Shown here: one piece after another, positions 5,021 through 64,000 of the stretch | Layout: each line of letters starts with the position of its first letter | Numbering within the stretch: position 1 is the stretch's first letter | Source of the DNA: Candidatus Eiseniibacteriota bacterium | Lineage (GTDB): Bacteria; Eisenbacteria; RBG-16-71-46; DASYSL01 | Reading direction: 5' to 3' | Assembly (NCBI GenBank): GCA_046598045.1 | Contig: JBKJJJ010000174.1 | Span: 42,148 to 106,147 of the forward strand | Length of the DNA: 64,000 nucleotides | Program-made: the position numbers and the translations under genes | Notes under the pieces: model-generated | What the model was told of the DNA's origin: nothing | Database searches by the model: none | Seen by the model: only the letters and a program-made list of their open reading frames with translations

Positions 5021-5116
5021 GGTGTTTCTCCTCCTGTTGGAATCCGACGGCGGTGCTGCGGTGGATCACGCCCAATGGGCGCGAGTTGGGGGGAAAGTGG
5101 GTGTGGAAGGCGCCCC

Positions 5117-9716: not shown

Positions 9717-9898
9717 CTCGGCCGTCTAGTATCCGGCAGCGGTCCCCCGGAATCAATCCCGTATATTGCCAAGCCTATTCCTGCTAGGGGATTGCCGCCG
9801 GCGCGACAAGCTAACAAATTCCCGCGTCACACTTGGCCGACCGCTCGACCTCCTCCGCGAAGGTCACTGGATCACCGATCCGTCCCGAGGAGCTCGCG

Positions 9899-10714: not shown

Positions 10715-10742
10715 GCGCCACCCTACCTCAGAGGAGCCAGCG

Positions 10743-20524: not shown

Positions 20525-20543
20525 GGCGATCCTCCTCGCGCGG

Positions 20544-23686: not shown

Positions 23687-23796
23687 CCGTCCTCCGCTCG
23701 GTTCGAGGTGCGTCCACCATAGAACCCGCCCCGCCCCGCGCCAAGGGCCTTGACGCCACACCTCGCGCTTGAAACAGTCGCGCCGGGAGGGCCTCC

Positions 23797-24585: not shown

Positions 24586-24591
24586 GGTTCC

Positions 24592-36402: not shown

Positions 36403-37775
36403 TTTCCGATGCAGAAGCGCGCGAAGATGCGCGCCAGGAGGTCGGGTGCAACGGCCTCGCCGGTGACTTCGCCGAGTGCCGCGAGCGCGACGCGGATCTC
36501 GCCCGCGACGATCTCCCCGGGCGCCGCGGCGGCTGCATCGCGCGCCTCGTCGATCGCCAGCTGCGCACGCCGCAACGCGTCGATGTGGCGCGCGTTGGTG
36601 ACGAGCGCGGAGGCGGGATCTTCGCTGCTGCCCGAGACCAGCGCGGCGGCAAGCGCACGCCGCAGCGTCGCGACGCCCTCCCCGCTGTGGGCGGACACCT
36701 CGATGCAAGCGGCGGTGGCGAGCGCGGTCGGCGCGGCGAGCGCGCGCGGCAGGTCGCTCTTGTTGAACGCGATCACGCAGGGTCGATCGGAGGCGAGCGC
36801 CCAGGCCTCCGCGTCCGCGGCGGTCCACGGCGCGGACGCGTCGAGCACGAGCAGCGCCAGGTCCGCGGCGCGGAGCTCCTCGCGCGTGCGCGCGATGCCG
36901 AGGCGCTCGACCACCTGGTCGCCCTCCGCCTCGCGCAGGCCCGCCGTGTCGATCAGGCGCACCGGGATGCCTCCGAGGTCGAGACGTTCGCTCACCGCGT
37001 CGCGCGTGGTGCCCGCGATCTCCGCGACCAGCGCGCGCGATTCTCCCAGGAGCGCGTTGAAGAGCGAAGACTTGCCGACGTTCGGCCGCCCGACGAGCGC
37101 GAGTCGCGCGCCTTCGCGGGCGCGGCGGCCGAGGTCGGCGCCGCGCAGCACGTCCTCGAGCGCATCCGAAGCGCGAGCGAGACCCTCGGCGACGTGGGGC
37201 GGCAACGTGGCCTCGCCCACGTCCTCGGCGAAGTCGACGCGCGCCTCGACCTCGGCAAGCAGGTCGCGCAACGGCTCGGCCACGTTCGACAATCCGCTCG
37301 AGAGTGCGCCCGCGACCTGGCGCGCGGCGAGGCGATGCGCGAGTTCGCTCTCGGCGTGGATCACGTCGGCGACCGCCTCGGCGCGCGCGAGGTCCATGCG
37401 GCCGTTGAGGAACGCGCGCTCGGTGAATTCGCCGGCCCGCGCCGCGCGCGCGCCCGCCGCGAGCAGCGCCGCGAGCAGGCGCGGCGCGGACCAGTCGCCG
37501 CCGTGGCACGTGAACTCGACCATGGTCTCGCCGGTGTAGGACGCGGGCGCGGGGAGGACCACCGCGAGCAACTCGTCGATCATCTCGCCGGACGCGTCGT
37601 GGGCGGAGCCGTGGCGCAGCGCACGCGGCGGGGCGTCGGCGAGCGGGCTCGCGCCCGGACCCCAGCCGCGGAACACGCGATCGCCGATCGCGCCCGCGTC
37701 GGCTCCGGAGAGCCGGACGATCGCGAGCGCGGAGCGCCCCGGGGGCGTGGAGATGGCGGCGATGGTGTCGGTCAT
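36399..37775 (-). CDS. mnmE: tRNA modification GTPase MnmE (TrmE)
   Basis: ATG at 37775 ([13 protein letters not shown]). G-domain [14 protein letters not shown] and DTAGLRE. C-terminal CIGK tetrapeptide (..FARFCIGK). Confidence 0.9.
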
Positions 37776-37819
37776 GGGAGCGCCGGGCGGCGCTCCCGCG
37801 ACGACCGGCTTGCCTCGGA

Positions 37820-38722
37820 TCAGCCCTTGATCGCCGGGCGGATGGCGATGCGTTTGAGCACGCCGTCGCCGTACGACTCGGTGGTCACGCTGCCGTCGGC
37901 CGTGAGCGCGCGATGGATGACGCGGCGCTCCTCGGGCGAGAGCGGCTCGGTCAGGGCCTCGTCGCCACTGGCGATCGCCTCGGCGGCGAGCGCACGCGCG
38001 CGACCGAGCAGCGATTCCTTGCGCTCGGCCCAGTAGCCGTTGACGTCGACCAGCAGGTGGGCCCCCGGTCCGCGGCGCGGGTTCACGAGGCGCGACAGCA
38101 CGTGCTGGATCGAGAGCCGGGTCTCGCCCCGGCGCCCGGTGAGCAGCGCGTCGTCGGTCTCGCTGGTGAGGCTGACGGTGACCTCGTCGTCCTCGTGCGC
38201 CACCGCAACCTTCGCCTCGAAGCCGAGGCGCTCGAGCAGCCACTCGGCGTCGGTGCGCACCTTCGCGAGGAAGGCGTCGTCGACGTCGAAGCGCTCGCCC
38301 GGCTCGAGCGGCGTGCGCGGGCGGCGCGGACGCTCGGGCCGATCACCCCGCGACGGGCGCTCGCGGCGCTCCCCGCGCTCGGGACGTCCGCCGCGCACGC
38401 CACGATCTCCACGGGCGCCGCGATCCTCGGCGGCGCTGCGGTCGATGCGATCCTGGCGCGCGGGACCGTGGTCGATCTCTTCGTCCTCGGAGTAGGCGTT
38501 GCGCTCCGCCTTCGGGGCCGGCGGCGGCGGTGGTGGTGGGGCGAACTCGGGGCGCCACGTCGCGCGCACGCGGAACAGGCGGGCCACGCCGCCCATGAGC
38601 CCGGCCGGACCACCTTCCTCGAGCTTCTTGAGGGTGGCCTGGTCGGGCCGGGCGCCCAGCGTGTTGAGGGCGTCCAGCACGGCTTCCTCGAGCGTGTTAC
38701 CCGAACCGACGGCGCTATTCAC
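37820..38722 (-). CDS. jag: Jag/KhpB-type RNA-binding protein (KH + R3H domains)
   Basis: Conserved position between yidC and mnmE. N-terminal Jag_N. Arg/Glu/Asp-rich linker. C-terminal R3H-like [36 protein letters not shown]. Confidence 0.8.
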
Positions 38723-38743
38723 GATCCCCTCCGAGCGTCATGC

Positions 38744-40456
38744 CTACGCGGCCTTGGCCTTGGGCTGCGCGTCGCCGCGGGCGATGAGCCACGACTGCAA
38801 CGCGGTCAGCAGGTTGATCACGGTCCAGTAGAGGACCAGTCCCGACGGCAGGTTGTAGAACAGGAACAGGAAGACCAGGTTCATCAACGTCATCGTGGTC
38901 TTCTGCTTCGGGTCGGTCGGCGACATGTGCATCTGGAGCACCATCGACCCGTACATCAACACCGGCATGAGGCGCAGCGGCACCGGCCCGATCTGGGCGA
39001 GCAGGTCCGGCGACGACAGGTCGGTGATCCAGCCCACGAAGCCCGCCTGGCGCAGCCCGATCGAATACCCGAGCACGTGGTAGAGCGCGAGGAAGAACGG
39101 CATCTGGATGACCATGGGCAGGCAACCCGAGAGCGGGTTGATCTTGTGCTCCTTGTAGAGGCCCATCATGGCCTCGTTCAGCTTCTGCGGATCCTTCTCG
39201 TGCTTCTTGCGGATGCGCTCGACTTCGGGCTGGATCTTCTGCATCGAGCGCATCGAGCGCATGCCCTGCGACTGCAGCGGGTGCGTCGCCGCCTTGGCCA
39301 GCGTCGAGAGCAGGATGATCGCGAGGCCCCAGTTGCCGACGACCTTGTGGAAGAACCCGAGCAGCCACGCCAGCGCGGACGAGAACGGCCGGAAGAAGTT
39401 GAACGCAAATGCGTGCGGCGGCTCGAGGTCCATGCCGATGCGCTGGATGTGCCAGTAGTCGAGCGGCCCGGCATAGAGCATGTACTGGTGGACGCGTCCC
39501 GCGGCGGGCAGCGGCAGCGTGATGTCGCCGATCACTGCGTCGTGGGCCTCGGGAAGCGTGCCCGGCGCGAGGTTGGCCGACGTGGCGACGCCATCCACGT
39601 TCTCGGCGACCAACCCGAGCAGGAAGTACTTGCTGTGGACCGCGAGCCAGGAGACGGCGCCCTCGCGCGATTTCACGCCCTTCTTGAGCCCCGTCGCCAT
39701 CTCGCGGCGGTTGTCCTTGCCGACCTTCGCGGTCACGCCGAGGTTGTTGAGGTCCTCGAGGTGATTGCGCTCGGTTGCCAGCGGCCACGAGCGCAGCGCG
39801 ATCCGGTAGTGCCTCAGGTCGAGCTTGGGGTCGAGCCCGGCGATCGAGACGGAGTAGCCGATGCGATAGTCGGCGGCGTTGAAGCGGAACGCCTGTTCGA
39901 TCGTGAGCCCGCTCGAATCCCGCGCGGTGAACGTGAGCTTCGCGACGTGGCCCGAGGTGTCGAGGCTCTCGGCCCACGCGTAAGGCACGTCGTCGAGGTC
40001 GATCGGAGTCTGCGCGTCGCCGAGGTCGAGCGCGAGCGCCGGATCCCCCGACAGCGTGGCGCGGCCCGAGTTGCCGTCCTTGTAATCCTTGAGCACGACC
40101 GAGAGCAGGCGCGCGCCGCGCGCGCGAAGGCGCGCCGTGTAGAGCGGCTGCTCGATGGTCAGGATGCTGTCGGCGCCGGCGGGTGCGAGCCACGTGCCGT
40201 TTGCTCCGCCCGCGCTGTCGGGCGCGGCCGGGACATGGCTGCCGAGGATCGCAGCGGCCGGACCCTTGACCGGCGCGGGCGCTTGCAACTGCGGCGTGCC
40301 GCCGGGGACCGTCGGTCCCGCGGGCGTCTGCACCTTGACCTGGGCCTGGCGCTGTTGCGCGGGCGTGGGAATCCACCCGAGCTTCTGGAACAGGAGGTTG
40401 GAGCCGAACAGGACGACGAACGAGAGCGCGATCGCGACCAGCGCGCGGCGATCCAT
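38744..40456 (-). CDS. yidC: Membrane protein insertase YidC
   Basis: N-terminal TM, large periplasmic domain, and the C-terminal five-TM 60-kDa-IMP core (..NPLSGCLPMVIQMPFFLALYHVL.. and NLPSGLVLYWTVINLLT). Confidence 0.9.
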   Translation of the reverse strand: MDRRALVAIALSFVVLFGSNLLFQKLGWIPTPAQQRQAQVKVQTPAGPTVPGGTPQLQAPAPVKGPAAAILGSHVPAAPDSAGGANGTWLAPAGADSILTIEQPLYTARLRARGARLLSVVLKDYKDGNSGRATLSGDPALALDLGDAQTPIDLDDVPYAWAESLDTSGHVAKLTFTARDSSGLTIEQAFRFNAADYRIGYSVSIAGLDPKLDLRHYRIALRSWPLATERNHLEDLNNLGVTAKVGKDNRREMATGLKKGVKSREGAVSWLAVHSKYFLLGLVAENVDGVATSANLAPGTLPEAHDAVIGDITLPLPAAGRVHQYMLYAGPLDYWHIQRIGMDLEPPHAFAFNFFRPFSSALAWLLGFFHKVVGNWGLAIILLSTLAKAATHPLQSQGMRSMRSMQKIQPEVERIRKKHEKDPQKLNEAMMGLYKEHKINPLSGCLPMVIQMPFFLALYHVLGYSIGLRQAGFVGWITDLSSPDLLAQIGPVPLRLMPVLMYGSMVLQMHMSPTDPKQKTTMTLMNLVFLFLFYNLPSGLVLYWTVINLLTALQSWLIARGDAQPKAKAA

Positions 40457-40459
40457 GCG

Positions 40460-40681
40460 TCAGGCGTCCCGCGTCGGAGTGGTGGGCACGGGATCGACGC
40501 CGTGGCCGCCCCAGGGGTGGCAGCGGAGCAGGCGCTGCGCGGTCAGGCCGAGGCCGCGCCACGAGCCGTGCCGGATCAACGCCTCCTCGGCGAATTCGGA
40601 ACACGAAGGCCAGTAGCGGCAGGTGGCAGGCAGCAGCGGAGAGACGAGGCGCCGGTAGAGCCGGATCACCAGGACGGTCAT
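40460..40681 (-). CDS. yidD: Membrane protein insertion efficiency factor YidD
   Basis: 73 aa from ATG 40681. YidD signature RYWPSCSEFAEEALIRHG and conserved Cys. The long track ORF 40460..40999 has a spurious N-terminal extension. Confidence 0.8.
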   Translation of the reverse strand: MTVLVIRLYRRLVSPLLPATCRYWPSCSEFAEEALIRHGSWRGLGLTAQRLLRCHPWGGHGVDPVPTTPTRDA

Positions 40682-40686
40682 GGGGA

Positions 40687-41085
40687 TCAAGAGTCGAGTA
40701 CTCCCAGTTGCTGCATGAGTTGGGCGACGTCGAGCGCCAGTCGATCGAAGTCTACGTGCGGCGCCGAGGGCAGCGCAATCAGCACGACCTGCCGGCCGTC
40801 GGGATGCACCCGGGGCCAGAGCGCCCGCGCGATCTGGCGCAGGCGGCGCTTGGTGCGATTGCGCAACACCGCGTTGCCCACCTTGCGGCTGGCGATGATC
40901 CCGACCCGGGACGGCTCGCCGACTGCGACGTGGGCGTAGGCCACCACGCACTGCCCGCGGCGGCTCAAACCCTCGCGGAACGCGCGCTGATACTGCCACC
41001 CGCGGACGAGGCGATGCGCGCGCCCAAAGCGCGCGCGCGGCTCCGGCCCGCCCGGTGGGACCGGGGGATCGGCGGGACGCACCAT
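40687..41085 (-). CDS. rnpA: Ribonuclease P protein component RnpA
   Basis: Position between rpmH and yidD. Basic RNR motif region (VLRNRTKRRLRQIARAL). Confidence 0.75.
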   Translation of the reverse strand: MVRPADPPVPPGGPEPRARFGRAHRLVRGWQYQRAFREGLSRRGQCVVAYAHVAVGEPSRVGIIASRKVGNAVLRNRTKRRLRQIARALWPRVHPDGRQVVLIALPSAPHVDFDRLALDVAQLMQQLGVLDS

Positions 41086-53101: not shown

Positions 53102-54520
53102 TCACTCCCCGAACAACCCGGCCTTCTCCAGCGGATTCGGCACGCGCGTGTTCCAGCCGTAGGTCTCCTTCAGGAGCGCGGCGAGCGACTCCGCCGACTC
53201 CGGCTCGCCGTGCGTCAGGAACACGCGCGAAGGCGCCGGCTTGCCGAACGTGCCCGCCCAGCGCACCAACTCGGAGCGGTCCGCGTGCGCCGACAGCGCG
53301 TCGATCTTCTCGATCTGCGCGCGCACCGGCACGAACTCGCCGAACATCTTCACTTCCTCCGCGCCCTCCAGCAGCGTGCGGCCGCGCGTGCCCGGCGCCT
53401 GGAAGCCGACGAACAGCACGATGTTGTTCGGGCCCGGCAGCCGGCTCCGCAGGTGGTGCACGATGCGGCCACCCGACGCCATGCCGCTCGCCGACACGAT
53501 CACGCGCGGGCCGGGCATGGTGTTGAGTTTCTTCGACTCCTCGACCGACTGCACGAGGTTCAGCTCGCCGAAGTAGAACGTGCAGCCCCGATCGCCCGCG
53601 TGGACGTGCGGCACCTTCTGCTCGGCGGGGTACTTGCAGTAGATCTCGGTGGCGTCGATCGCCATCGGGCTGTCGAGGTGAACCGGGACCTTCGGGATCG
53701 AGCCGTCCTTCATGCCCTCCTTCAGGATGAGCAGGATCTCCTGCGTGCGCCCGACCGCGAACGCGGGGATGAGCAACACGCCCTTCGACTCCACGATGCG
53801 TTTCACCAGGGACGCGATGTAGGAGCGCGGGTCCTTCTCCTCGTGCTCGCGATTGCCGTACGTCGACTCCATGACCAGCAGGTCCGCGCCCGTGCTCATG
53901 TCCTCGGGGTCCCGCATGAGGAGCGAGTCGTAACGGCCGAGGTCGCCCGAGAACACGAGGCGCTTCTTCTCCCCGTTCCGCTTCACGGCGAGCTCGACGA
54001 TCGCCGAGCCGAGGATGTGTCCCGCGCGGTGGAACACGACGTCGACCGAATCCGAGAGCGCGAGGCGCTTGCCGGGCTCGATGTCGTGGAACAGATCCAT
54101 CGCCTGCTCGGCCTGGCGCACGGTGTAGAGCGGCAGCGCGGGCTTGTGCTTGGAGTAGCCGCGCCGGTTCGCGTACTCGGCCTCCTCCTCCTGCAGGTGC
54201 GCGCTGTCCTTGAGCATGAAATCGCACAGGTCGCGCGTGGCGGGCGTCGCCCACACCTTGCCCCTGAACCCGTCTGAAACCAGCCGGGGCAGGTAGCCCG
54301 TATGGTCGATATGCGCATGGGTCAGGACCACGTGATCGATGCCCGCCGGATCGATCGGCAAGGGCTGCCAGTTGCGGAGCCGCAGGTCCTTCAAACCCTG
54401 GAACAAACCGCAATCCACCAGCACCTGCGTGCCGCCCGCCTCGACCAGGTACTTGGACCCGGTGACGGTGCGCGCCGCGCCCAGGAATTGCAGGCTGAAA
54501 CCGCCAAAGTCGTTCGCCAA
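53102..54520 (-). CDS. MBL-fold beta-CASP RNA-metabolising metallo-hydrolase (RNase J / CPSF-like)
   Basis: N-terminal FLGAARTVTGSKYLVE. MBL motif VVLTHAHIDHTGYLP. Beta-CASP region and C-terminal LTHGEP. Probable TTG start near 54520. The upstream 300 codons of track ORF 53102..55435 are noise. Confidence 0.75.
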   Translation of the reverse strand: MANDFGGFSLQFLGAARTVTGSKYLVEAGGTQVLVDCGLFQGLKDLRLRNWQPLPIDPAGIDHVVLTHAHIDHTGYLPRLVSDGFRGKVWATPATRDLCDFMLKDSAHLQEEEAEYANRRGYSKHKPALPLYTVRQAEQAMDLFHDIEPGKRLALSDSVDVVFHRAGHILGSAIVELAVKRNGEKKRLVFSGDLGRYDSLLMRDPEDMSTGADLLVMESTYGNREHEEKDPRSYIASLVKRIVESKGVLLIPAFAVGRTQEILLILKEGMKDGSIPKVPVHLDSPMAIDATEIYCKYPAEQKVPHVHAGDRGCTFYFGELNLVQSVEESKKLNTMPGPRVIVSASGMASGGRIVHHLRSRLPGPNNIVLFVGFQAPGTRGRTLLEGAEEVKMFGEFVPVRAQIEKIDALSAHADRSELVRWAGTFGKPAPSRVFLTHGEPESAESLAALLKETYGWNTRVPNPLEKAGLFGE

Positions 54521-54550: not shown

Positions 54551-55702
54551 ATGGGTGCGCCCGCATCGGCCGATTTGGATCGCGATTTGCGCGTGTTTTT
54601 CGCGCAGGGCCTCGCCGCGCCCGCCGACGAGCGCGCGTTCAACGACCTCGCGCTGCGCGTGTTCGCCTACCAGTACGAAGCGCTCGCACCCTACAAGGCG
54701 TACTGCCAGAAACGGGGCGCGCTGCCCCAACGCCTGCGCACCTGGGCCGAGATCCCGCCCGTGCCGGCGCAGGCGTTTCGCGACCTGCGCCTGTGGTGCG
54801 ACGACGACGGCGCGCCGGCCGCGGTGTTCCGGACCTCGGGCACCACGGCGCAAGGCCGTCCCGGCGAACACTACATGAGCGCCAGCGGGCTTGCACTCTA
54901 CGACGCCTCGCTCCTGCCCACGTTCCGCGCGTTCGTCCTGCCGGAGCTCTCCGACGAGGCGGACGCGCGCTCGACGATTGCGCTGCTCGCGCTCGGACCG
55001 CCGCCCGCCGAGGCGCCGCACTCCTCGCTCTGGCACATGGTGGGCGTCGCCGGCCGCGCGCTGTTCGAGCGCCCCGCGCGCTGGTTCCTGCCCGCTGCCG
55101 GCCTCGACGCGCCCGGCCTCGAGCGCGCGTTCGCCGAGGGTGGCGCGGCGTGCCTGGTCGCGACCGATCTCGCGCTCGACGCGTATCTCGAGTCCGCGCT
55201 GGCGCGCGGCTTCCGGGTCGCGCTGCCCGCCGGGTCGCGGCTCGTCCACACGGGCGGAGCCAAGGGCAAGCGGCGCGGGGTCGCGCCGGAATCGCTCTAC
55301 GTTCGGGCGCGGGCCGTGCTCGGCCTCGCGCCGGAGCGCTGCGTCAGCGAATACGGCATGACCGAGCTCGCCTCCCAGTTCTATGAGGACACGCTGCGCG
55401 ACACCCCAGCGTCCGCGCCGCCGCGGCTCAAGCACGCGCCGCCCTGGCTGCGCGCGATCGTAGTCGACGCCCGGACGCTCGAGCCGGTCGCGCCCGGCAG
55501 CTCCGGCCTCCTGCGCCTCTTCGATCTCGCGAACCGCGGCTCGGTGATGGCGATCCAGAGTGAGGACCGCGCCGCCTGTGCGACCGACGAGGAACTCGGC
55601 AGCTCTCCGGGGTTGGGCGCGCGGCCGTTCCGCCTGCTCGGGCGCGCGCTGGGCACCGAGCCCCGCGGCTGCTCGCTCGCCGCCGAGGAGGCGCTCGCGT
55701 GA
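54551..55702 (+). CDS. luxE: LuxE-family acyl-protein synthetase (fatty-acid activating, adenylate-forming)
   Basis: About 380 aa. N-terminal LuxE-like region (..FAYQYEALAPYKAYCQKRG..). Phosphate-binding motif FRTSGTTAQGRPGEH. The stop overlaps the next gene (ATGA). Confidence 0.65.
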   Translation: MGAPASADLDRDLRVFFAQGLAAPADERAFNDLALRVFAYQYEALAPYKAYCQKRGALPQRLRTWAEIPPVPAQAFRDLRLWCDDDGAPAAVFRTSGTTAQGRPGEHYMSASGLALYDASLLPTFRAFVLPELSDEADARSTIALLALGPPPAEAPHSSLWHMVGVAGRALFERPARWFLPAAGLDAPGLERAFAEGGAACLVATDLALDAYLESALARGFRVALPAGSRLVHTGGAKGKRRGVAPESLYVRARAVLGLAPERCVSEYGMTELASQFYEDTLRDTPASAPPRLKHAPPWLRAIVVDARTLEPVAPGSSGLLRLFDLANRGSVMAIQSEDRAACATDEELGSSPGLGARPFRLLGRALGTEPRGCSLAAEEALA

Positions 55703-57021
55703 GCCTCGCGCCCGATCCGCTCGTCGACTCGCCGGTCGCGCATCCGGTCACCGCCGCTCAGGTGGGCGCGATCTGGGAGGAGCTGTCGGACGCGCGGGGC
55801 GCGCTCGATCACCGGCTCGCCGCGGATCTCCTGCCCGCGCTCGTCGGCGCGATGCGCCGGCTGACCGCGCCGACGGGGCCCTACCGGCAGCGCCTGCTCG
55901 ATGGGCTCGCGCAATCGACCGGCTGGAACAGCGGCGCGATCGAGGAGGGCCTGGCACGCTTCACACGCGCCTACACCGAGAACGCGCTGCGGGCAGCGAT
56001 CGTGCGCGCGGTCGGGTCGCTCGAGACGCTCGATCGGCGCGGGCAGCGGCGCGCAATGAGCCCGCGCGGCGTGTTCCTCGCGCTCGCCTCGACCATTCCG
56101 TGGGCCGGCATCGAGTCGCTCACGTGGGCACTGCTCGCGCGCTCGACCTGCCTGGTGCGCGTCTCGGCGGGAGAGCCGTGGACCGTGCCTTTGTTCCTCG
56201 ATGCGCTCGCCGAGGAGTACCCGCCGCTGGCGCGCACTGCAGCCGCGCTCTACTGGCCGTCGGACGACGCCGAGGCGCACGGCGCCGCGATCGCGTACCC
56301 CGAGGCCGCGGTGGTCTACGGCGATGACGACTCGGTGGCGACCTGGCGTGCGCTCGCCGCCCGGCGCGCGAACCCGCCGCGCGTGATCGAGCACGGGCAC
56401 CGCATGTCGGTCGCGATCGTGGGCCGCGGATCGCTCGCGCCCGGTGTCGCCGACCAGGTCGCCGACGTGCTCGTGCGCGAAGCCGCGCTCTACGACCGGG
56501 ACGGCTGCCTGTCGCCGACGATCGCCTATCTCGAGGCTTCGGGCGCGATCCGCCCCGAGGATTTCGGCGAGCGCTGTGCGCGCGCGCAGGCGCGCTGGGC
56601 CGAACGCTGGCCCGCCCGGCTGCCCGACGACGCGCAGGCCTCGGCCACGCACCAGGCGCGCGGCACGTGCGAGCTCGCGGGCGGGCAGGTGTGGGCCGCG
56701 CCCGACGCGACGTGGACAGTGGCGCTCGATCGCCGCGATCCGCCGCCCGCGCCGGTCGCCGGGCGCTTCCTCTGGCTCCACCAGTTCACCGACTTCGAGG
56801 GGCTGCGCGCGCAACTCTCCTCCTGGGGCGACCGGCTCTCGACCATCGGCGTCTCGGCCTGGAAGGCGCGCGACGCCGAGCTGATCACGATCATCGGCCC
56901 GAGCGGCGCGACGCGCGTCTGCCCGCTGGCCACGATGCAGGATCCACCGCTGGACCGATTCCACGACGGGCGCTCCGAGCTCGCCGACCTGCTGCGCATT
57001 CGCGACTGGGAGCTTGCATGA
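55699..57021 (+). CDS. luxC: LuxC-family acyl-CoA / acyl-protein reductase (fatty aldehyde-forming)
   Basis: About 440 aa, the typical LuxC length, with a conserved Cys in ..LYDRDGCLSPTIAYLE.. Translationally coupled downstream of the luxE-like gene. Followed by another 4-nt overlap. Confidence 0.6.
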   Translation: MSLAPDPLVDSPVAHPVTAAQVGAIWEELSDARGALDHRLAADLLPALVGAMRRLTAPTGPYRQRLLDGLAQSTGWNSGAIEEGLARFTRAYTENALRAAIVRAVGSLETLDRRGQRRAMSPRGVFLALASTIPWAGIESLTWALLARSTCLVRVSAGEPWTVPLFLDALAEEYPPLARTAAALYWPSDDAEAHGAAIAYPEAAVVYGDDDSVATWRALAARRANPPRVIEHGHRMSVAIVGRGSLAPGVADQVADVLVREAALYDRDGCLSPTIAYLEASGAIRPEDFGERCARAQARWAERWPARLPDDAQASATHQARGTCELAGGQVWAAPDATWTVALDRRDPPPAPVAGRFLWLHQFTDFEGLRAQLSSWGDRLSTIGVSAWKARDAELITIIGPSGATRVCPLATMQDPPLDRFHDGRSELADLLRIRDWELA

Positions 57022-57419
57022 CCGCCTGCCTGCGCTGTGGAAAGCCTGCCGATGGCCGGTTGCGCGCCGCGATCTGGGAAGAGGAAGAGAAGGGCCGCCT
57101 CGGCGCGCGACCCGTGACGCTGTGCGCCGCCTGCCACAAGGCGTTCCTCAAGGGGAACGTCACGCGCGTCGAGATCGGCCGCGCCTATCACGCGGCGAAA
57201 GGCATCGAGCCGCGCGGCTGGATCGGGCGCATCGACCGCGACCTGCTGCTCAACATCGTGTGCCTCGAATGTGGCGTGATCCTGCCGCTCGAGTCGGCCG
57301 ACGACGCGCCGGCCTCGGACCACGACGCGCTGCCCGACACGCGCTGCCGCGAGTGCGGCACGACCAACCGCTTCGCCCGCCGCGGCGAGCGCTGGATCAC
57401 GGCCGAGATCGTGCCGTGA
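57018..57419 (+). CDS. Cys-rich zinc-ribbon protein (four CxxC pairs)
   Basis: ATG 57018 overlapping the luxC TGA. CLRCG ... CAAC ... CLECG ... CRECG spaced as two zinc ribbons. Confidence 0.5.
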   Translation: MTACLRCGKPADGRLRAAIWEEEEKGRLGARPVTLCAACHKAFLKGNVTRVEIGRAYHAAKGIEPRGWIGRIDRDLLLNIVCLECGVILPLESADDAPASDHDALPDTRCRECGTTNRFARRGERWITAEIVP

Positions 57420-58060
57420 GCAAGGTCGTCCCGCTCGAGTTCCCGTACTACTTCGTCTGCCTGGTGGGCGTGATGCTGGCGTGGGTGGGCTTCACGCTCG
57501 CGTTCGTCGTGTTCAAGCCGAAGACGCCGAAGGCCGCCCAGTCGCCCGCGGGGCCCCAGGAGAAGCCGGAGATCAAGACCCGCGACCGGCGCTCGCTCGG
57601 CGGCGTCCTGCTGCAATCGGTCGGCTATTTCCTGATGTGGCTCTCGTTCCGCCCGCCGTTCCCGACGCTCTCGCTGTTGCCCGCCCCGCTTGCGCTCGCA
57701 CTGGCGGCCTTCGCGGTCGTGCTCGCGTGGGCGGCGGCGAGCTTTGCGTTCTGGGCGCAGCGCACGCTCGGCAAGGAATGGAGCTTCCAGGCGCGCCTGG
57801 TGGAGGGGCACCGCCTGGTGAACACGGGCCCGTACGCGATCGTGCGCCACCCGATCTACACGGCGATGTGCGGCATGTGGCTCGCGACCGCGCTCGCGAT
57901 CGCGCGCCCGTGGGGCATCGTGCTCGGCGTGGTGCCGATGTTTCTCGGCACGCTGATCCGCGTCAAGCTCGAGGACGCGCTGCTGCGCGGCGCGTTCGGC
58001 GACAAGTTCGAGGAGTGGGCGAAGCGGGTGCCGGCGGTGGTGCCGATCCCGAAGGGCTAG
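57416..58060 (+). CDS. ICMT/PEMT-family membrane methyltransferase (second paralog in the window)
   Basis: GTG 57416 overlapping the upstream TGA. TM helices. ICMT signature GPYAIVRHPIYTAM and EDALLRGAFGDKFEEW. Confidence 0.75.
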   Translation: MSKVVPLEFPYYFVCLVGVMLAWVGFTLAFVVFKPKTPKAAQSPAGPQEKPEIKTRDRRSLGGVLLQSVGYFLMWLSFRPPFPTLSLLPAPLALALAAFAVVLAWAAASFAFWAQRTLGKEWSFQARLVEGHRLVNTGPYAIVRHPIYTAMCGMWLATALAIARPWGIVLGVVPMFLGTLIRVKLEDALLRGAFGDKFEEWAKRVPAVVPIPKG

Positions 58061-58085: not shown

Positions 58086-59801
58086 TCAGCGCAGAACGAC
58101 GAACTTGGCTCCGTCGGACATCTCCCCGCTCTGATCGCGCACCCGCGCGAAGTACACACCCGGACGGATCCCACCCCCCTGGAGTGGAATCTTCAGCGTC
58201 TGTGCGTCACGATCGGCTCGTTGGACCCTTGCCTGCTGAACTACGCGGCCCGCGAGATCATAGATCGTGACCGTGAGTTCGGATCCGATCGCATCGCTCA
58301 AATCAAGCGTGAGCGCGTCGGTCGTGAAGCCCCGCGGACGAGCCTCGAAGTGCCGCTTGCGGCCGCCTCCCGGGGAAAATCGCGCAATCGGGCTGAGCCA
58401 CTCGAACCGCGAGTCGACGCTCTCGCGGCGAATGCGGTACGAAATGTCGTCCCTCTGAGACCACCCCGAACGATTATCGAGGTCCGTCCAACTCATCGCG
58501 AGACTTGCTCCCGCCTGGAGCCGGGCGACCGCTGCGAATTCGCCAGCCCCGGTTCGCCGCAACACCGACCACCACGTCCCGGGAGCCAAGGTCGAGAGCG
58601 TCCAGGTCAATCGGGGATGTCCCTGGGAGACGTCCACCGCGGGAACGCTCGTGGTCGCGGAGGTATGGGTGTGCGTATAGCGGAAAGGCTGAAAGGATTC
58701 GGACCACGCGACCCAGGCGTCGCCGTTGCGGTCACGTCCGATCGACGGAACGGCGCCATATCCACTGCTGTAGAACTGATCGCCCGGATCCCAGCCATGA
58801 TCATTGGGGAAGTTGACGACGACACCGGCGGAGCCGTCGAGATAGTTGGTGTACGCCCACGTCACGAGCGGTCGGTAGGCGGCGTCCCGGCTCAGGTCGG
58901 TCGAGAGGGCCTCGGCCCCGCGCGGCGTCGTGATCGCAGGACAGAACAGCGTCTCCGGGGCCGACCACACGTGGCCGTCGAACCGCCGGAGAAAGACGCT
59001 CTGTTCCCCGCTGCTCCACGTCATCCAGGCGCCGCCACCGGCACTAAATCGAAGTCGGGGACCGCCCGCGAACCCGGATGTGAGGATTTCGGGAGAGCGC
59101 TCCCACCGGCTTCCGCGAAGAACTCCCCAGTCAAGCGGCTCTCCGTTTCCAGCCCATGCCATGAGCGCGGTCGTGTCGTCGAGCGCGACCAGGTTGAGGC
59201 CGTAGTTGCCGATCGCTCCCGTCGAGACTTCATTCCATCGGTCGCGCTCATCGGAATAGAACAGGCGGAGAACACCACGGTCCTCGATCGCCACCCATCG
59301 TCTAGGATCTCGAAACGCGCCACCGTACGAGGTTCGAAATTGGCCGACTTGAGCCACGATCTCGGGCGGGGTCGGGTGATCGTCGATCACCTCGGAAACG
59401 AAAAACGTGTGGTCCGTCGCGTAGGATCCGCCAGTGTACACGAGGGGATAGCGTCCGACGGGCGCGTCGACAGCATACAGTCCGAGCGGGTTCGCCCCAA
59501 GGGTCCACCACGGCTCCCACAAGCTCCCAAGCCACTTGTACGCAAGTCCGTCGTCCTGCTGCGAGTCCTGATACAGAACCCCCGTTCCGATCAGCAGAGG
59601 ACTTCCGGTGGCGGTCATCTCGACCCGCGGGACCACGAGTTCATTGAACCCGGAAACCTGTAGCACCTCGACGTCTCCCCACTCCCTGCCGGCAGGAGCC
59701 GCCACCGCTAGCATAGGAACCAACCAAGCAACGAGTCCGAGGCCTCTGACAAGAAGGCCGACGGCATCGCATTTCGACTTCCGCCCCATCATGACCTCCA
59801 C
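58086..59801 (-). CDS. Secreted protein with T9SS type-A / FlgD-Ig-like C-terminal sorting domain
   Basis: Signal peptide LVAWLVPMLAVAAPA. The large N-terminal domain has Trp-rich beta-propeller-like repeats. C-terminus LTLDLSDAIGSELTVTIYDLAGRVVQQARVQRADRDAQTLKIPLQGGGIRPGVYFARV. Confidence 0.6.
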   Translation of the reverse strand: MEVMMGRKSKCDAVGLLVRGLGLVAWLVPMLAVAAPAGREWGDVEVLQVSGFNELVVPRVEMTATGSPLLIGTGVLYQDSQQDDGLAYKWLGSLWEPWWTLGANPLGLYAVDAPVGRYPLVYTGGSYATDHTFFVSEVIDDHPTPPEIVAQVGQFRTSYGGAFRDPRRWVAIEDRGVLRLFYSDERDRWNEVSTGAIGNYGLNLVALDDTTALMAWAGNGEPLDWGVLRGSRWERSPEILTSGFAGGPRLRFSAGGGAWMTWSSGEQSVFLRRFDGHVWSAPETLFCPAITTPRGAEALSTDLSRDAAYRPLVTWAYTNYLDGSAGVVVNFPNDHGWDPGDQFYSSGYGAVPSIGRDRNGDAWVAWSESFQPFRYTHTHTSATTSVPAVDVSQGHPRLTWTLSTLAPGTWWSVLRRTGAGEFAAVARLQAGASLAMSWTDLDNRSGWSQRDDISYRIRRESVDSRFEWLSPIARFSPGGGRKRHFEARPRGFTTDALTLDLSDAIGSELTVTIYDLAGRVVQQARVQRADRDAQTLKIPLQGGGIRPGVYFARVRDQSGEMSDGAKFVVLR

Positions 59802-59831
59802 ATTCTTGGCATCGCCATCAATTCTAGCTTG

Positions 59832-59842
59832 CCCCCCCCCCC
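59832..59842. repeat. Homopolymeric C11/G11 tract in a divergent promoter region
   Basis: GCTTG-CCCCCCCCCCC-TAATCG lies between the - strand gene start at 59801 and the + strand ATG at 59984. Confidence 0.7.
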
Positions 59843-59983
59843 CTAATCGAGCGCAGAATGTTTGCCGAACTCCGTCGGCCGGTTAGCCACCCCCCGGCTC
59901 AGCCTTCCATAGCCGCAAGTGCCCTTCCGACTGCGCCCTGCAAATCGCCCTGGGAAACGCCCCTCCCGCCTTGGAGGTTCGAC

Positions 59984-62900
59984 ATGGACGTCAAAGTTCC
60001 CTCCTCAGCAACTGCGCTCGCCCTGGCGGCGGTGCTGCTCGTTTCAAGTGCAGAAGGCTCGGGGACTGGTATAAGCGTCGCCGGCGACGCTGTGACCACC
60101 TCGTCTACGACCGACACGCTCTTCTTTCCTTACAGGCCGAAGGTGACCGGAACGCAGTCTCGATATACGAGAGACTTGGAATTTCAGCTCTCTTCGCGAT
60201 ATTCGATTGGCCGAGGGGATGCCACTCCCGGACGAATCGGATCCGATAATTTGACGCTGATAAATTTCGGCGCGACTCTCACCGACTCGATCGGCAAGAA
60301 CCCGTTCAACGCGCCATACTCGGATTTGCATCTCGGCTACGACTATTTTTCCAGGACAGGCCAGCAGTACGATCCAAACCCATTCAACCCAGTCGGCTTC
60401 ACTCTCCCCATCAGCGACGGGAGCTACCCGACGGTCGACAAGGCCCATGTCGACTTCTACATCTTCGAACCGGGGCAGACCCAGGCCCTGAACTTCAGAG
60501 GTAGTGGAAGCGCTCCGTCGTTCTTCACGACACCGAAGGAAGATTCCTCGACCGGGCATTGGTCGTCGCCGACGAACTTCACCGTCCTTCCGAAGAATTC
60601 GGCCATGGGTGTCGGCCCGTCTCGCGCTGCGCTTGCGGATGTCGGGGGGACCGGCTGGACGCGGCCCGGACAGGCAGCCAACTGGACCTTCACGCATGAA
60701 TTTCAGCACCTCGTTTCTGGAGGCTCAGCCTCTACGGGGAATGCGCTGGAGGAGCTCTTCTCCGCCGGCGCTGAGGTGCTCACCGGGGACTTGCCGAGTG
60801 ATGCAGCAGCCTTCGATTACGCGTACACTTGGAGCTTATTGGTCAACGACAATGTCGGTCTGGGTGGCGTGAGAAGTGCCGGGGCGAACTACGCGGGCAG
60901 GCGACTCCTCGCGGCGTATCTCTTGTACAACTATCGCAATCAGGATACGACGGCGACGCTGAACGTGGGCTCGACGGTCGGGGGATTTGCGGACGACCTC
61001 TTCTATCGCTGGGCGCGGGAATCGTTACGAACTTTCGGCAGCCTCCAGGGCCTGCTCTCGAACGCCAGTTGCTACACTTGTTCTCTCCGCCCCTCGTTGA
61101 GTCCCGGAGGGCAACCGCTCTCGGACTACGATCGCCTGCAACTCGTGATTCACCAGATGAGGGTGGCCAGCTTCGTCAACAACCCGTTCCTCGCGGCCGA
61201 CGCGAGCGGTTACGGCCCGTACGGCTATCCGCCCCGGTTCGGCTTCTCGCCCGCGGCCGACGTGGGCGCCTGGCGGGACATCGATCCCAACGGCCCTAAC
61301 GTCGTCGCCATTCCGCAGGAAGTGACGGCGCGGCCGGGTTGGGTCTCGCGCGACACGGTCCTCTCGAAGGACCGCTCGAGGGACGGGGTCTCCTACCCGC
61401 TCGTTCTGCAGCCGTATGGGTCGGAGTACTGGGTGATCCGGTCCACTTCCGGCATCTCCGCGGGCACGGACTTGATGGTTCGGGTGGAGTCCGACAGCAT
61501 TTTTCGGACGTCGACGCTCTTGGGGCTGTACTGTCTTCCGCTTGGCAAGCTGGATGCCCGGCTGATGGCGACCGTGGTGGGCTATACGCAGCAATCCGAC
61601 AGCCTCTGGGCTCACCCCGAGTACGCGGGAACGGTCCTCGACACGCGTTGGGTGGACGTCGACAGCCTCGCCGGCGAGTTCGTCTTCTCCCTGCCGAACT
61701 TCGGCACGCAGTACCGTGCTGCCGTCCTCACCCTGACCCTCGGAGACGGGCCGTCGTTCGGGCTCAACGCGGCCAGTAGCTTTAACACGTATCAGGAGGC
61801 CGTGCATTACCGCCTCAATCTCGGGCTGCGCAAGTCTCCACCCGCCGGGTCCGACCCCGCGGCCTTAGTCGAATCGTCGGTGACCGAGGACTATCCCGCC
61901 TGGTCCCCCAATGGGACCGAGATCGCCTACGAGTCTGCCGATGCCCCGAACTCGAGAATCATGAGAAAGCCGGTCGCCGGCGGTGCGGCCACGGTCCTTG
62001 TCAGCGCGTCGAATTCCCAGCACACGCCCGATTGGTCCCCGCGCGGCGACCGCGTCGCCTTCGCCGAAGATGCCGCAGGGGGCAATCGCCACATCCGCTC
62101 GTACAACTTGACCACGCAGGTCGCGACAGACCTGACCACGGGAACGGTCTCCGATCTCTACCCGGTCTTCCAACCCAACGGCGAGCGGCTCGCCTACGTG
62201 CGCACCATCCCCGGCAGCGGCCAGTGGACGATTCGCCGTGTCAACGTGGACGGAAGCAACGATGCGGCGATCCTGACGACCGCGCTGAGCACGGCCATCG
62301 TGTCTCCGCGCTGGACCCCGAACGGCCAGGCCGTCTACTTCGTCAGCAACAGTCGGCTCTATTCCGTCCCCGTGAGCGGGGGAACAGCCACTCCTCAGGA
62401 CTCTCTCGGTCGAGATATCGCTACGTTCGATCTGCCGCGGGGGAGCGGTCGCCTGCTGATCGAGAACGCCGCCTCCCTGCGCTGGATCTGCGATGACGCA
62501 AACGCTCCAGCATTCATGCCCTATCGCCGCATCGCCCTGAGGGACACGCTCGCGAGCCCGAAGGATACGGAGATGCGCTGGTATCGCACCGGCGCCAGCT
62601 TCTGGAGCCCCCGCTACTCGTTCGACAACACGCGCATCGCCTACCGCTCGGACCAGAACGCCGCCTCAGGCGGGGATCTCTATATCGGCCAAGCCGTCTA
62701 CGATCACGCGCCGACGTTCGTGAGCACGGTCACGGACACGACGGTCGGCATGGGGATCGGATTGAGCCTGAGCCTCGCCGCCAATGACCCGGACGGGGAT
62801 GCCCTCACCTACTCCGGGGCCTACTTTCCAGCGGGGGCGAGCCTGATCGGCAACCTCTTCTCCTGGCCGAGCCCGGATACGACCGGCGGCCCGGTTTCGG

Positions 62901-64000
62901 TCGTCCTTCGAGCCCTGAGCCCGGGGGGCGCGCTCGCCAGCAAGGTGGTCAAGATCACGGTCGTCCCCAGGCCGGTGGCCGTTGCCACTCTGGTGGCCGA
63001 TGCGGGCAGGACCACCGCGGCTGCCGCGTGGTCCGAGCCCAATCAGCCACAGGGGCAGGCAACTTCCTACGAATTGCGCTACCTGATTAACACGACGATC
63101 ACCGAGAACAATTTCTCGACGGGGACGGTCGTCTCCCAGTCGGAGGTCCCCGGACCTGCGGGAACACCGCACTGTGTCCTGATCCCGGGCATTGCTTCGT
63201 GCAAGAATCTCTCGATCGCAGTGAGGACATGGAGGAATGGCATTCCCTCCACGATCAGCAATGTCGCGAGCGCGAGCACCGCGTGTTCGGGATCCCTTGA
63301 GGTGAGCTGCGGCGACTTCGGGCTGTGGGGTGGAGGAGGTGGCGGCGGGTTCTTGCGGGCCGGCGGTACGCGCACCGCTTCGACCTCGGGTTCCCCCGGC
63401 TCGGCCGTCTCGAACGCCACTTCGGCCTCGGAAAACTCCATACTCGGCGACGTCCACGGAACATCCAGGGCGGACCTTCTGCGGCTGCCCACCCCGATCG
63501 AGCCCGACCACGGCGAGTACGCGATCCATGTGCGAAGGAACGACGGCCGGACGATGGACCTCGACCAGGTCGCTCTGCTTGCGGTGGATCACGCGGACGG
63601 CGAAGCGGCCATCGCATCGAACGACGGCGTGCTGATCGGCACATGCGCGGGAGTCGCTTCGATTCGCGACCTGCTCGGGCAGGTCGGTTCCGATGCCGCA
63701 GGACAGCTCTCCGATGGTGGGATCGTGCTCGGACGGGAGAATGCTCTCACCATCGAACTGGACGACCGGGAACCGTCGTCGGTGCTCGTGATCGACTGCG
63801 TTGCCCCGGCGGCGGAGGTCGTGCGCGATTCAGCAGGCGTTGCCGTCCAGATTCCGACCGGCGACGGCGACTGGGGGACGATCGACCTGGTGCGGCCACG
63901 TGCGGCGGCGGATCGGAGGGCCGTCGACCTGCGAGGGTCGCACAGCGCACGCCTCGTGGCACTCGGGAAATACACGATTCTGCGGGTTCAGCGTCTGGCC
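59984..64000 (+). CDS. Very large secreted multidomain protein, 3'-truncated by the window edge (over 1338 aa): HExxH gluzincin-like metallopeptidase region, PD40/TolB-like beta-propeller repeats, cadherin-like and FN3-like domains, and a poly-Gly linker
   Basis: The ORF runs from ATG 59984 (GGAGG 8 nt upstream) in frame 2 to the window end and is absent from the supplied track. Signal peptide MDVKVPSSATALALAAVLLVSSAEG. FTHEFQHLVSGGSASTGNALEEL (HExxH with a downstream Glu). Five WSP-x-G-x-x-IAY/F PD40-like repeats (DYPAWSPNGTEIAYES, HTPDWSPRGDRVAFAE, LYPVFQPNGERLAYVR, VSPRWTPNGQAVYFVS, WSPRYSFDNTRIAYRS). NDPDGDALTYS cadherin-like motif. GGGGGGG linker. The 5' 400 nt is markedly lower in GC than the surroundings. 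Confidence 0.7.
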   Translation, partial: MDVKVPSSATALALAAVLLVSSAEGSGTGISVAGDAVTTSSTTDTLFFPYRPKVTGTQSRYTRDLEFQLSSRYSIGRGDATPGRIGSDNLTLINFGATLTDSIGKNPFNAPYSDLHLGYDYFSRTGQQYDPNPFNPVGFTLPISDGSYPTVDKAHVDFYIFEPGQTQALNFRGSGSAPSFFTTPKEDSSTGHWSSPTNFTVLPKNSAMGVGPSRAALADVGGTGWTRPGQAANWTFTHEFQHLVSGGSASTGNALEELFSAGAEVLTGDLPSDAAAFDYAYTWSLLVNDNVGLGGVRSAGANYAGRRLLAAYLLYNYRNQDTTATLNVGSTVGGFADDLFYRWARESLRTFGSLQGLLSNASCYTCSLRPSLSPGGQPLSDYDRLQLVIHQMRVASFVNNPFLAADASGYGPYGYPPRFGFSPAADVGAWRDIDPNGPNVVAIPQEVTARPGWVSRDTVLSKDRSRDGVSYPLVLQPYGSEYWVIRSTSGISAGTDLMVRVESDSIFRTSTLLGLYCLPLGKLDARLMATVVGYTQQSDSLWAHPEYAGTVLDTRWVDVDSLAGEFVFSLPNFGTQYRAAVLTLTLGDGPSFGLNAASSFNTYQEAVHYRLNLGLRKSPPAGSDPAALVESSVTEDYPAWSPNGTEIAYESADAPNSRIMRKPVAGGAATVLVSASNSQHTPDWSPRGDRVAFAEDAAGGNRHIRSYNLTTQVATDLTTGTVSDLYPVFQPNGERLAYVRTIPGSGQWTIRRVNVDGSNDAAILTTALSTAIVSPRWTPNGQAVYFVSNSRLYSVPVSGGTATPQDSLGRDIATFDLPRGSGRLLIENAASLRWICDDANAPAFMPYRRIALRDTLASPKDTEMRWYRTGASFWSPRYSFDNTRIAYRSDQNAASGGDLYIGQAVYDHAPTFVSTVTDTTVGMGIGLSLSLAANDPDGDALTYSGAYFPAGASLIGNLFSWPSPDTTGGPVSVVLRALSPGGALASKVVKITVVPRPVAVATLVADAGRTTAAAAWSEPNQPQGQATSYELRYLINTTITENNFSTGTVVSQSEVPGPAGTPHCVLIPGIASCKNLSIAVRTWRNGIPSTISNVASASTACSGSLEVSCGDFGLWGGGGGGGFLRAGGTRTASTSGSPGSAVSNATSASENSILGDVHGTSRADLLRLPTPIEPDHGEYAIHVRRNDGRTMDLDQVALLAVDHADGEAAIASNDGVLIGTCAGVASIRDLLGQVGSDAAGQLSDGGIVLGRENALTIELDDREPSSVLVIDCVAPAAEVVRDSAGVAVQIPTGDGDWGTIDLVRPRAAADRRAVDLRGSHSARLVALGKYTILRVQRLA

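Follow-up and report, generated by a model that had tools for sequence, protein, structure and literature searches.

Nature has few ways to make an aldehyde from a free acid, and pairs of LuxE and LuxC are one of them. Among the closest described systems is the LuxC-LuxE complex of Photobacterium phosphoreum (PDB 7XC6; PMC9157457), and the roles of Lys238, Arg355, and Cys364 of LuxE and of the catalytic cysteine of LuxC have been described (PMC9157457, PMC12041015). In the LuxC of bioluminescence, a C-terminal oligomerization segment (P460-P488) closes an L-shaped hydrophobic cleft. LuxE and LuxC are also encoded together in published flagellin glycosylation islands of Aeromonas and Enterobacteriaceae (PMC7874193, PMC4875605). 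In addition, TabE, from the biosynthesis of tambjamine BE-18591, is a stand-alone LuxC-like reductase that acts on acyl-ACP or acyl-CoA without requiring a LuxE (bioRxiv 10.1101/2025.08.11.669332). Non-luminous LuxE/LuxC pairs are numerous, though we found no biochemical characterization of them in the literature that we searched.

The window (the whole stretch of 64,000 nucleotides that we analyzed) is from an uncultured soil bacterium of Candidatus Eisenbacteria. It contains a tightly packed, real operon of four genes, which lie at the positions and have the names that were given in the original prediction, as judged by reading the open reading frames directly and by their Pfam families. The operon and its divergent neighbor are as follows:

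53102..54520, reverse strand: MBL/beta-CASP/RMMBL ribonuclease-type gene (by Pfam), a divergent neighbor that is probably outside the system
54551..55702, forward strand: LuxE-like acyl-protein synthetase (adenylate-forming), 383 aa (by Pfam LuxE and 7xc6_E)
55699..57021, forward strand: LuxC-like acyl-thioester reductase (aldehyde dehydrogenase [ALDH] superfamily), 440 aa (by Pfam LuxC and 7xc6_A)
57018..57419, forward strand: double zinc-ribbon protein, 133 aa, a lineage-specific partner of LuxE/LuxC (by four CxxC motifs)
57416..58060, forward strand: ICMT/PEMT-family membrane methyltransferase, 214 aa, accessory and subclade specific (by Pfam PEMT/ICMT and 4a2n)

Every junction within the operon is a 4-nucleotide overlap, as had been claimed. 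Read from the sequence, these are GTGA at 55699-55702 (not the ATGA that was originally given for this first junction), ATGA at 57018-57021, and GTGA at 57416-57419. Overlaps of 4 nucleotides are also present in relatives, at all three junctions in locus L007 and at the first two in loci L005 and L041. GC3 is 0.80-0.91 across all four genes, which is expected in a genome with 70% GC, so they behave as coding sequence. When 54.0-58.4 kb was scanned for signals, no promoter-like sites emerged, and the terminator-like sites, all of them inside genes, were no more than chance would give.

The assignments to the LuxE, LuxC, and ICMT families were checked with hidden Markov models, and all three are above the Pfam gathering scores. 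The LuxE-like protein matches PF04443 with 43.7 bits (gathering score 24.9), and its closest solved structure is the LuxE chain 7xc6_E (E = 3.4e-10). It has the adenylation motif TSGTT at residue 95; its Lys238 and Arg365 align with the Lys238/Arg355 pair of LuxE; and its Cys374 (RGCSL), 10 residues before the C terminus, aligns with the acylated Cys364. The LuxC-like protein matches PF05893 with 148.6 bits (gathering score 21), nearly along the full length of the profile (positions 25-400 of 401), and its closest solved structure is the LuxC chain 7xc6_A (E = 3.1e-8). The alignment with 7xc6_A, a chain of 477 residues, spans only residues 122-279 of the 440; within it, Cys270 (YDRDGCLSP) aligns with the catalytic cysteine of LuxC (FYDQQACFS). 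Both proteins score far below the cutoffs of the NCBIfam equivalogs for bioluminescence: 40.8 bits against a cutoff of 550 for LuxE (NF052244) and 42.6 bits against a cutoff of 750 for LuxC (NF052251).

We found no luciferase-like or LuxD-like families among the 40 window proteins that were scanned with Pfam (encoded before 12.3 kb and between 16.3 and 59.8 kb), and no luxA, luxB, or luxD in the related loci that we inspected. The original prediction had stressed that LuxE and LuxC stand here without these genes, but this is not unusual: luciferase-independent LuxE-LuxC pairs are common. An exhaustive search of cluster representatives identified 1709 that are LuxC-like at E ≤ 1e-3, with 898 left at the stricter E ≤ 1e-10, and unrelated contigs (L008, L036-L040, and L046) carry plain two-gene cassettes of LuxE and LuxC. 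(A word-indexed search was dominated by low-complexity candidates and gave close relatives only, so the wider family is taken from the exhaustive search.)

The truly conserved partner of LuxE/LuxC is the zinc-ribbon protein, which the original prediction gave too little weight. The order LuxE-LuxC-zinc ribbon, with the zinc-ribbon gene directly 3' of the LuxC-like gene, is found in 34 of the 35 loci for which upstream sequence is available, and these span two clades. From one clade to the other, the zinc-ribbon protein is 47-72% identical and is more conserved than LuxC (35-39%); LuxE is 43-46% identical. Locus L026 seemed at first to have a zinc-ribbon gene but no LuxC. We rejected this case, because an asparagine-synthase-like ORF there runs in frame into the final ~20 codons of LuxC, as a result of either a chimeric assembly or a deletion. 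Among the homologs that we found, the zinc-ribbon protein is confined to Eisenbacteria-type contigs, and none of the seven other LuxE-LuxC cassettes that we sampled has a zinc-ribbon or ICMT gene beside it. A literature search that combined LuxC/LuxE with a zinc ribbon or ICMT gave no relevant papers, and the association of the zinc ribbon with LuxE/LuxC is apparently a conserved feature that was undescribed so far.

The CxxC pairs of the zinc-ribbon protein are at residues 4/7, 36/39, 82/85, and 110/113. Across 26 sequences, C4, C7, C36, C82, C110, and C113 are invariant, and C39 and C85 are present in at least 90%, so that the paired CxxC knuckles of generic zinc-ribbon proteins are conserved across the homologs. 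The predicted structure is a confident model (pLDDT 90.4) that has no clear fold match. The protein does not reach the threshold of any family in Pfam or NCBIfam.

The surroundings of the operon limit how much can be read from linkage. The MBL/beta-CASP gene (Beta-Casp, 121 bits; RMMBL, 69 bits; Lactamase_B, 49 bits) has a TTG start, by homology with L001, and is 30 nucleotides from the ATG of the LuxE-like gene, so the proposed distance of about 30 bp is accurate. The shared regulation that was suggested along with it did not hold up: the gene adjoins the operon in the window's clade only (10 loci), while in the sister clade this flank is taken up by a CPA2/TrkA_C transporter, and we rejected a regulatory or functional link for this reason. 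This neighbor reflects synteny inside one lineage. On the other side, just beyond the gene that follows the zinc-ribbon gene, a convergent gene for an ADH_zinc_N oxidoreductase is found in 15 locus entries from both clades. The common flanking synteny indicates one lineage, and two genome loci and one homolog bear the name Candidatus Eisenbacteria or Eiseniibacteriota. As the synteny extends over the entire region in a single lineage, linkage by itself exaggerates how far the genes are functionally coupled. The triad of LuxE, LuxC, and zinc ribbon keeps its place in the chromosome from one Eisenbacteria-type contig to another, and it therefore resembles a housekeeping function of the lineage rather than a mobile biosynthetic cluster.

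Our preferred explanation, in which we have slightly more confidence than doubt, is that the operon encodes a luciferase-independent carboxylic-acid reductase of the LuxE/LuxC type, with a zinc-ribbon accessory and then a variable downstream step. By analogy to the solved Photobacterium complex, the LuxE-like protein would adenylate a carboxylic acid with ATP; the acyl group would form a thioester on Cys374 in its flexible C-terminal tail and then pass to Cys270 of the LuxC-like protein, which would reduce the acyl thioester with NAD(P)H to the free aldehyde. Since the four residues of the acyl relay from LuxE to LuxC are conserved, the chemistry with the best support is conversion of an acid to an aldehyde that depends on ATP and NADPH. 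Judging from context only, the likeliest substrate would be a fatty or other hydrophobic acid. The zinc-ribbon protein is strictly linked to the pair, highly conserved, and translationally coupled, which suggests that it may serve the reductase as an accessory subunit or an adaptor specific to the lineage. The next gene would provide a variable tailoring or detoxifying step: the short-chain dehydrogenase (SDR) of the sister clade could convert the aldehyde to an alcohol, and the ICMT/PEMT methyltransferase of the window's subclade could transfer a methyl group to the lipid product or to a related lipid of the membrane. Observations against this explanation include the scores far below the LuxE and LuxC equivalog cutoffs; the lack of an acyl carrier, a thioesterase, or a LuxD-like acyl supplier among the operon's genes; and the contexts of related pairs, described below, that suit amino or polar acids equally well.

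The methyltransferase has several hydrophobic spans and is predicted from its sequence to be a multi-pass membrane protein. It matches PEMT (PF04191, 44.8 bits; gathering score 25) and ICMT (PF04140, 44.3 bits; gathering score 24) about equally. Its residues 88-205 (118 residues) align with Ma-ICMT (4a2n, E = 3.6e-12), and the alignment takes in RHPxY and the E-rich C-terminal region. It scores 67.7 bits against the isoprenylcysteine equivalog (NF040696), below the cutoff of 160. Bacteria are not known to have prenylated CaaX proteins. Enzymes of the ICMT family act on carboxylates, phosphates, thiols, and amines, so the target of this methyltransferase cannot be named.

Six other loci (L007, L009, and L011-L014) have all four genes, arranged as in the window. 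With this co-conservation and the family scores above the thresholds, neither of the outcomes that would have refuted the original prediction was observed. Counting the window, an ICMT gene directly follows the zinc-ribbon gene in only seven loci, all of them close relatives, and it is present only where the zinc-ribbon protein is at least 66% identical to the window's. In the sister clade, the same slot holds an SDR gene in 13 loci, overlapping or close behind (adh_short, 89 bits); elsewhere, it holds a gene for a 320-aa lipoprotein (4 loci), a HigB-like toxin gene, or nothing recognizable. The methyltransferase is a local add-on in a variable slot, not a core member. Since the occupant of the slot varies, a pathway of acyl activation, reduction, and O-methylation, as originally proposed, would apply to at most one subclade. 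That proposal also drew support from an acyltransferase-ICMT pair at 9.9-11.4 kb of the window. The ICMT of that pair (10.7-11.4 kb) is just 35% identical to the operon's over 99 residues, which says little about the operon; on this basis we rejected the idea of a recent duplicate that would mark a common pathway.

The methyltransferase might even be a passenger that is co-transcribed but acts on an unrelated membrane substrate, in which case the functional unit would be only LuxE, LuxC, and the zinc ribbon. We consider this a serious possibility, at somewhat less than an even chance. The differing occupants of the slot and the restriction of ICMT to loci with similar zinc ribbons both point this way, as does the window's second, distant ICMT paralog, which is paired with a different gene. 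However, the GTGA overlap between the zinc-ribbon and ICMT genes is also called in L007, and in the other five ICMT loci the gap is a few codons (from tblastn coordinates). The ICMT is also kept at 67-77% identity across its loci, and a membrane lipid methyltransferase would be a plausible partner for a pathway that makes a hydrophobic aldehyde or alcohol.

It is unlikely, in our view, that the zinc-ribbon protein is a regulator of the operon (nucleic-acid-binding or anti-sigma-like) instead of an enzyme subunit. Small double zinc ribbons frequently bind nucleic acids, the calculated pI is about 8.2, and the source annotations of the homologs are RPC12/RpoP-, Com-, or S27E-like. However, these labels are generic for zinc ribbons, and none is backed by a family threshold; we did not find a match to a DNA-binding fold; and within the operon the gene stands among genes for enzymes, to which it is coupled in translation.

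Another alternative is that the substrate is an amino acid or another polar carboxylate, which the zinc-ribbon protein might carry or guide as LysW does. LysW proteins are zinc-ribbon amino-group carriers, and the substrate that they bind undergoes activation, reduction to a semialdehyde, and transamination. Class-III aminotransferase genes adjoin related LuxE-LuxC cassettes in other organisms, and a YbaK-type aminoacyl-tRNA editing domain has been added in four loci, so amino or polar acids fit as well as fatty acids. In the comparison of folds, LysW was the highest-ranking hit for the zinc-ribbon protein, though a weak one. Across the 26 homologs, the C termini vary in length and sequence and are non-acidic, with no LysW-type acidic tail ending in Glu; the conserved EEE(E) is part of an internal hairpin instead. 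We consider a substrate of this amino or polar kind to be quite unlikely. It is very unlikely that the LuxE/LuxC pair supplies an acyl or aldehyde block to decorate a surface glycan or polysaccharide, as has been proposed for the luxC/luxE homologs of flagellin glycosylation islands. PgaC/PgaB-like glycan genes upstream in L041 and a GT4 glycosyltransferase near the L036 cassette would fit this reading, but the acyl carrier protein, FabG, and glycosyltransferases that adjoin luxC/luxE in those islands are not adjacent here or in most of the related loci.

We can also speculate, with little expectation of being right, that the zinc ribbon is an obligate third component of LuxE/LuxC. It might be a carrier or adaptor for a non-fatty substrate, possibly by means of the Glu-rich hairpin, which is invariant; or it might be a subunit by which the pair is turned toward a new lipid-derived product, which would then be methylated (in the ICMT subclade) or reduced (in the SDR clade) to give an Eisenbacteria-specific membrane lipid or signal.

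We know of no cultured members of Candidatus Eisenbacteria, a soil phylum, and the function of the triad would be a first clue to a gene set that is conserved there. More broadly, LuxE/LuxC is always joined, in this one lineage, to a small and strongly conserved zinc ribbon. These three small genes should be easy to express and are a concrete handle that could reveal how LuxE/LuxC cassettes select their substrates and pass on a reactive aldehyde. Practical interest is modest unless the product proves to be new.

How, then, does the operon compare with known systems? It shares with Photobacterium phosphoreum LuxC-LuxE (PDB 7XC6; PMC9157457) the same two families in adjacent genes, and it keeps the adenylation motif, the Lys and Arg of LuxE, the cysteine in the tail of LuxE, and the cysteine of LuxC; because these catalytic residues are conserved, the same acyl-relay chemistry is expected. 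The similarity is remote, though, and far below the equivalog cutoffs; luxA, luxB, and luxD are absent from the scanned proteins; luxE precedes luxC, directly adjacent and overlapping; and there is an additional zinc-ribbon partner. The non-luminous LuxE/LuxC pairs (PMC7874193, PMC4875605, and loci L036-L040 and L046) are likewise luciferase independent, often translationally coupled, and functionally uncharacterized, but they stand with ACP, FabG, and glycosyltransferases, with class-III aminotransferases, or alone. TabE (bioRxiv 10.1101/2025.08.11.669332) is also an ALDH-like reductase with a catalytic cysteine, and its fatty aldehyde feeds a downstream tailoring enzyme; in contrast, the loci studied here always include a LuxE-like activating enzyme. 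Similarly to the LysW/ArgW amino-group carriers, a small zinc-ribbon protein is encoded beside carboxylate-activating and carboxylate-reducing enzymes, but the acidic, Glu-ended C-terminal tail that carries the substrate is missing. Ma-ICMT (PDB 4A2N) and the methyltransferase are both multi-pass membrane proteins whose C-terminal cofactor-binding regions align, while the score below the NCBIfam cutoff sets the methyltransferase apart from protein-S-isoprenylcysteine O-methyltransferase. Overall, luciferase-independent LuxE-LuxC pairs are already known; what is apparently undescribed is the lineage-specific zinc-ribbon partner.

The operon and the gene before it are arranged as follows:

53102-54520, minus strand: MBL/beta-CASP/RMMBL gene, starting 30 nt upstream of A
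54551-55702, plus strand: A, LuxE-like (Pfam LuxE, 43.7 bits; threshold, 24.9)
55699-57021, plus strand: B, LuxC-like (Pfam LuxC, 148.6 bits over nearly the whole profile)
57018-57419, plus strand: C, zinc-ribbon protein with four CxxC pairs
57416-58060, plus strand: D, methyltransferase (Pfam ICMT and PEMT, 44 bits each)

The original prediction assigned A, B, and D to the LuxE, LuxC, and ICMT families, and all three are above the Pfam thresholds; C did not reach the threshold of any Pfam family. NCBIfam gives the same families for the operon proteins as Pfam, with scores far under the cutoffs for true luminescence enzymes and for isoprenylcysteine methyltransferase. The genes were also predicted to be joined by 4-nt start/stop overlaps, which is correct, except that the first motif is GTGA instead of ATGA (A/B, B/C, and C/D read GTGA, ATGA, and GTGA). 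GC3 of the operon genes (0.80-0.91) matches that of other genes in this ~70% GC window. The best reading is that the operon encodes a LuxE/LuxC-type reductase that turns an acid into an aldehyde, plus a zinc-ribbon accessory specific to this lineage and interchangeable tailoring genes.

We gathered 39 distinct loci with a gene for the zinc-ribbon protein and mapped all of the genes on them by tblastn. A LuxC-like gene is next upstream of the zinc-ribbon gene in 34 of the 35 loci that have upstream sequence. In 3 of these 34, a secreted protein of 191 aa that matches no family sits between the two (L003:6415-6990, L004:2967-3542, and L031:671-1198; L numbers are related loci). The sole exception, L026, retains just the last ~20 LuxC codons: an asparagine-synthase-like ORF is in frame with this remnant and is followed by zinc-ribbon and SDR genes (530-1310). 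Either chimeric assembly or a natural deletion or fusion accounts for the fused ORF. A LuxE-like gene lies upstream of LuxC in every zinc-ribbon locus whose contig extends that far. In L003, LuxE and LuxC were called as one 863-aa gene product (3706-6297); by tblastn, the luxE-like part has a frame break.

The zinc-ribbon loci form two clades, the window's group and a sister group. LuxC is 77 to 89% identical to B within the window's group, and two genome contigs named Candidatus Eisenbacteria encode a LuxC-like protein that is 78 to 79% identical to B. Between the sister group and the window, LuxC is just 35 to 39% identical and LuxE is 43 to 46% identical, yet the zinc-ribbon protein is still 47 to 72% identical. 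In a rough neighbor-joining tree of LuxC, drawn without support values, the two groups are neighbors, apart from other LuxC-like proteins, and the window's group has a long stem. Both groups have the same flanking genes (a convergent ADH_zinc_N oxidoreductase, a 200-aa protein, and a methyltransferase), so these loci look like one lineage with conserved synteny.

The divergent MBL/beta-CASP gene, which lies at the predicted distance (about 30 bp), adjoins the operon in the window's group only. The sister group has a CPA2/TrkA_C (CPA2/Kef-like antiporter) gene in its place; in L041 and L043, this gene and the start of the luxE-like gene overlap. Among NCBIfam families, the MBL/beta-CASP protein best matches type VII CRISPR Cas14 (378 bits, under the 800-bit cutoff), with archaeal aCPSF1 behind it.

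As for the fourth gene, other genomes do share the full set, in line with the expectation of co-conservation: ICMT comes next after the zinc-ribbon gene at seven loci (the window, L007, L009, and L011-L014), which are close relatives only. The sister group has the operon LuxE-LuxC-zinc ribbon-SDR (L022-L029, L032, L041, and L043-L045), and in 13 of its loci an SDR gene overlaps or sits just behind the zinc-ribbon gene; 4 of the 13 have an extra gene for a YbaK-type aminoacyl-tRNA editing domain, overlapping or closely behind the SDR gene. The same slot holds a 320-aa lipoprotein in four loci and a HigB-like toxin and HTH antitoxin pair in L003. Thus, ICMT is an addition of one subclade to a variable position. 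It is less likely than not that ICMT works on the product of the LuxE/LuxC pathway; alternatively, D may be a passenger. Elsewhere in the window, a second ICMT/PEMT methyltransferase (77 bits) comes 28 nt after a FeeM-like N-acyl amino acid synthase (PF21926, 41.9 bits; both within 9833-11378), a combination that points to methyl-esterified N-acyl amino acids. This second methyltransferase is just 35% identical to D over 99 residues.

The solved structures nearest to A and B are the two chains of 7XC6, the Photobacterium LuxC-LuxE complex. In alignments to 7XC6, A retains the TSGTT adenylation motif; its Lys238 and Arg365 line up with the LuxE pair Lys238/Arg355; and its Cys374 (in RGCSL, 10 residues before the C terminus) lines up with the acylated Cys364. 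B retains the acyl-accepting cysteine (Cys270). In LuxE/LuxC, whose residue roles have been described, the acid is adenylated and moved onto the LuxE tail cysteine, and the LuxC cysteine then takes over the acyl group, whose reduction with NADPH yields the aldehyde (PMC9157457, PMC12041015). Given the conserved residues, A and B would use the same acyl relay from acid to aldehyde, and their sequences make LuxE/LuxC reductase chemistry quite likely. There is roughly an even chance that the substrate is a fatty or other hydrophobic acid; the competing view is an amino or polar acid, with the zinc ribbon being carrier-like.

The CxxC pairs of C are at residues 4/7, 36/39, 82/85, and 110/113. The protein has ~130 homologs; none of the 120 listed falls below 46% identity to C, and Candidatus Eiseniibacteriota is the sole taxon name among the matches listed. 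WEEEEKGRL, WIxRIDRD, and the cysteines are kept throughout, with the first Glu of WEEEEKGRL, C39, and C85 each variable in at most 10% of homologs. None of the papers searched ties LuxC/LuxE to a zinc-ribbon protein or ICMT. We tentatively suggest that C is a subunit of the reductase; it might instead be regulatory.

The window is ordinary chromosome, as it carries rnpA-yidC-jag-mnmE, parAB-like genes, and a FadL/FadD/thiolase group. It is probably near the replication origin because of the ParA/ParB-like genes and the mnmE-jag(R3H)-yidC-rnpA set (31682-33407 and 36399-41085). Fatty acid uptake and oxidation genes are grouped at 19292-25914 (GDSL lipase, FadL-type outer-membrane channel, FadD-like acyl-CoA synthetase, and thiolase), with an enoyl-CoA hydratase at 3346-4272. 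The minus strand at 5117-9123 encodes a 1012-aa TPR-CHAT protein and then a zf-HC2 anti-sigma-like protein. Directly behind the ICMT gene (58086-64000), GC falls to 0.62-0.64, and a Por_Secre_tail secreted protein (minus strand) and a giant ORF (>1390 aa) that leaves the window stand where relatives have the convergent ADH_zinc_N gene. This change marks a synteny break or insertion.

LuxE and LuxC without luciferase had been considered notable, which our searches do not bear out. An exhaustive HMMER search with the LuxC-like protein against 1.84 billion cluster representatives gave 1709 matches at E<=1e-3, 898 of them at E<=1e-10; a single representative covers the window's clade, and the next best match is 38% identical. 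Among distant members, L008, L039, and L040 are plain LuxE-LuxC cassettes. In unrelated organisms, LuxE-LuxC is translationally coupled to a class III aminotransferase that lies after the cassette in L036-L038 and before it in L046. This arrangement suggests an acid-to-aldehyde-to-amine route. A homologous protein from a lower-GC organism (P0239) is a natural LuxE-LuxC fusion of 871 aa. Glycan decoration is a competing but unlikely role for the window's operon, and published flagellin glycosylation islands include luxC/luxE (PMC7874193, PMC4875605). With so many LuxC relatives, luciferase-free contexts, and these islands, the missing luciferase is unremarkable.
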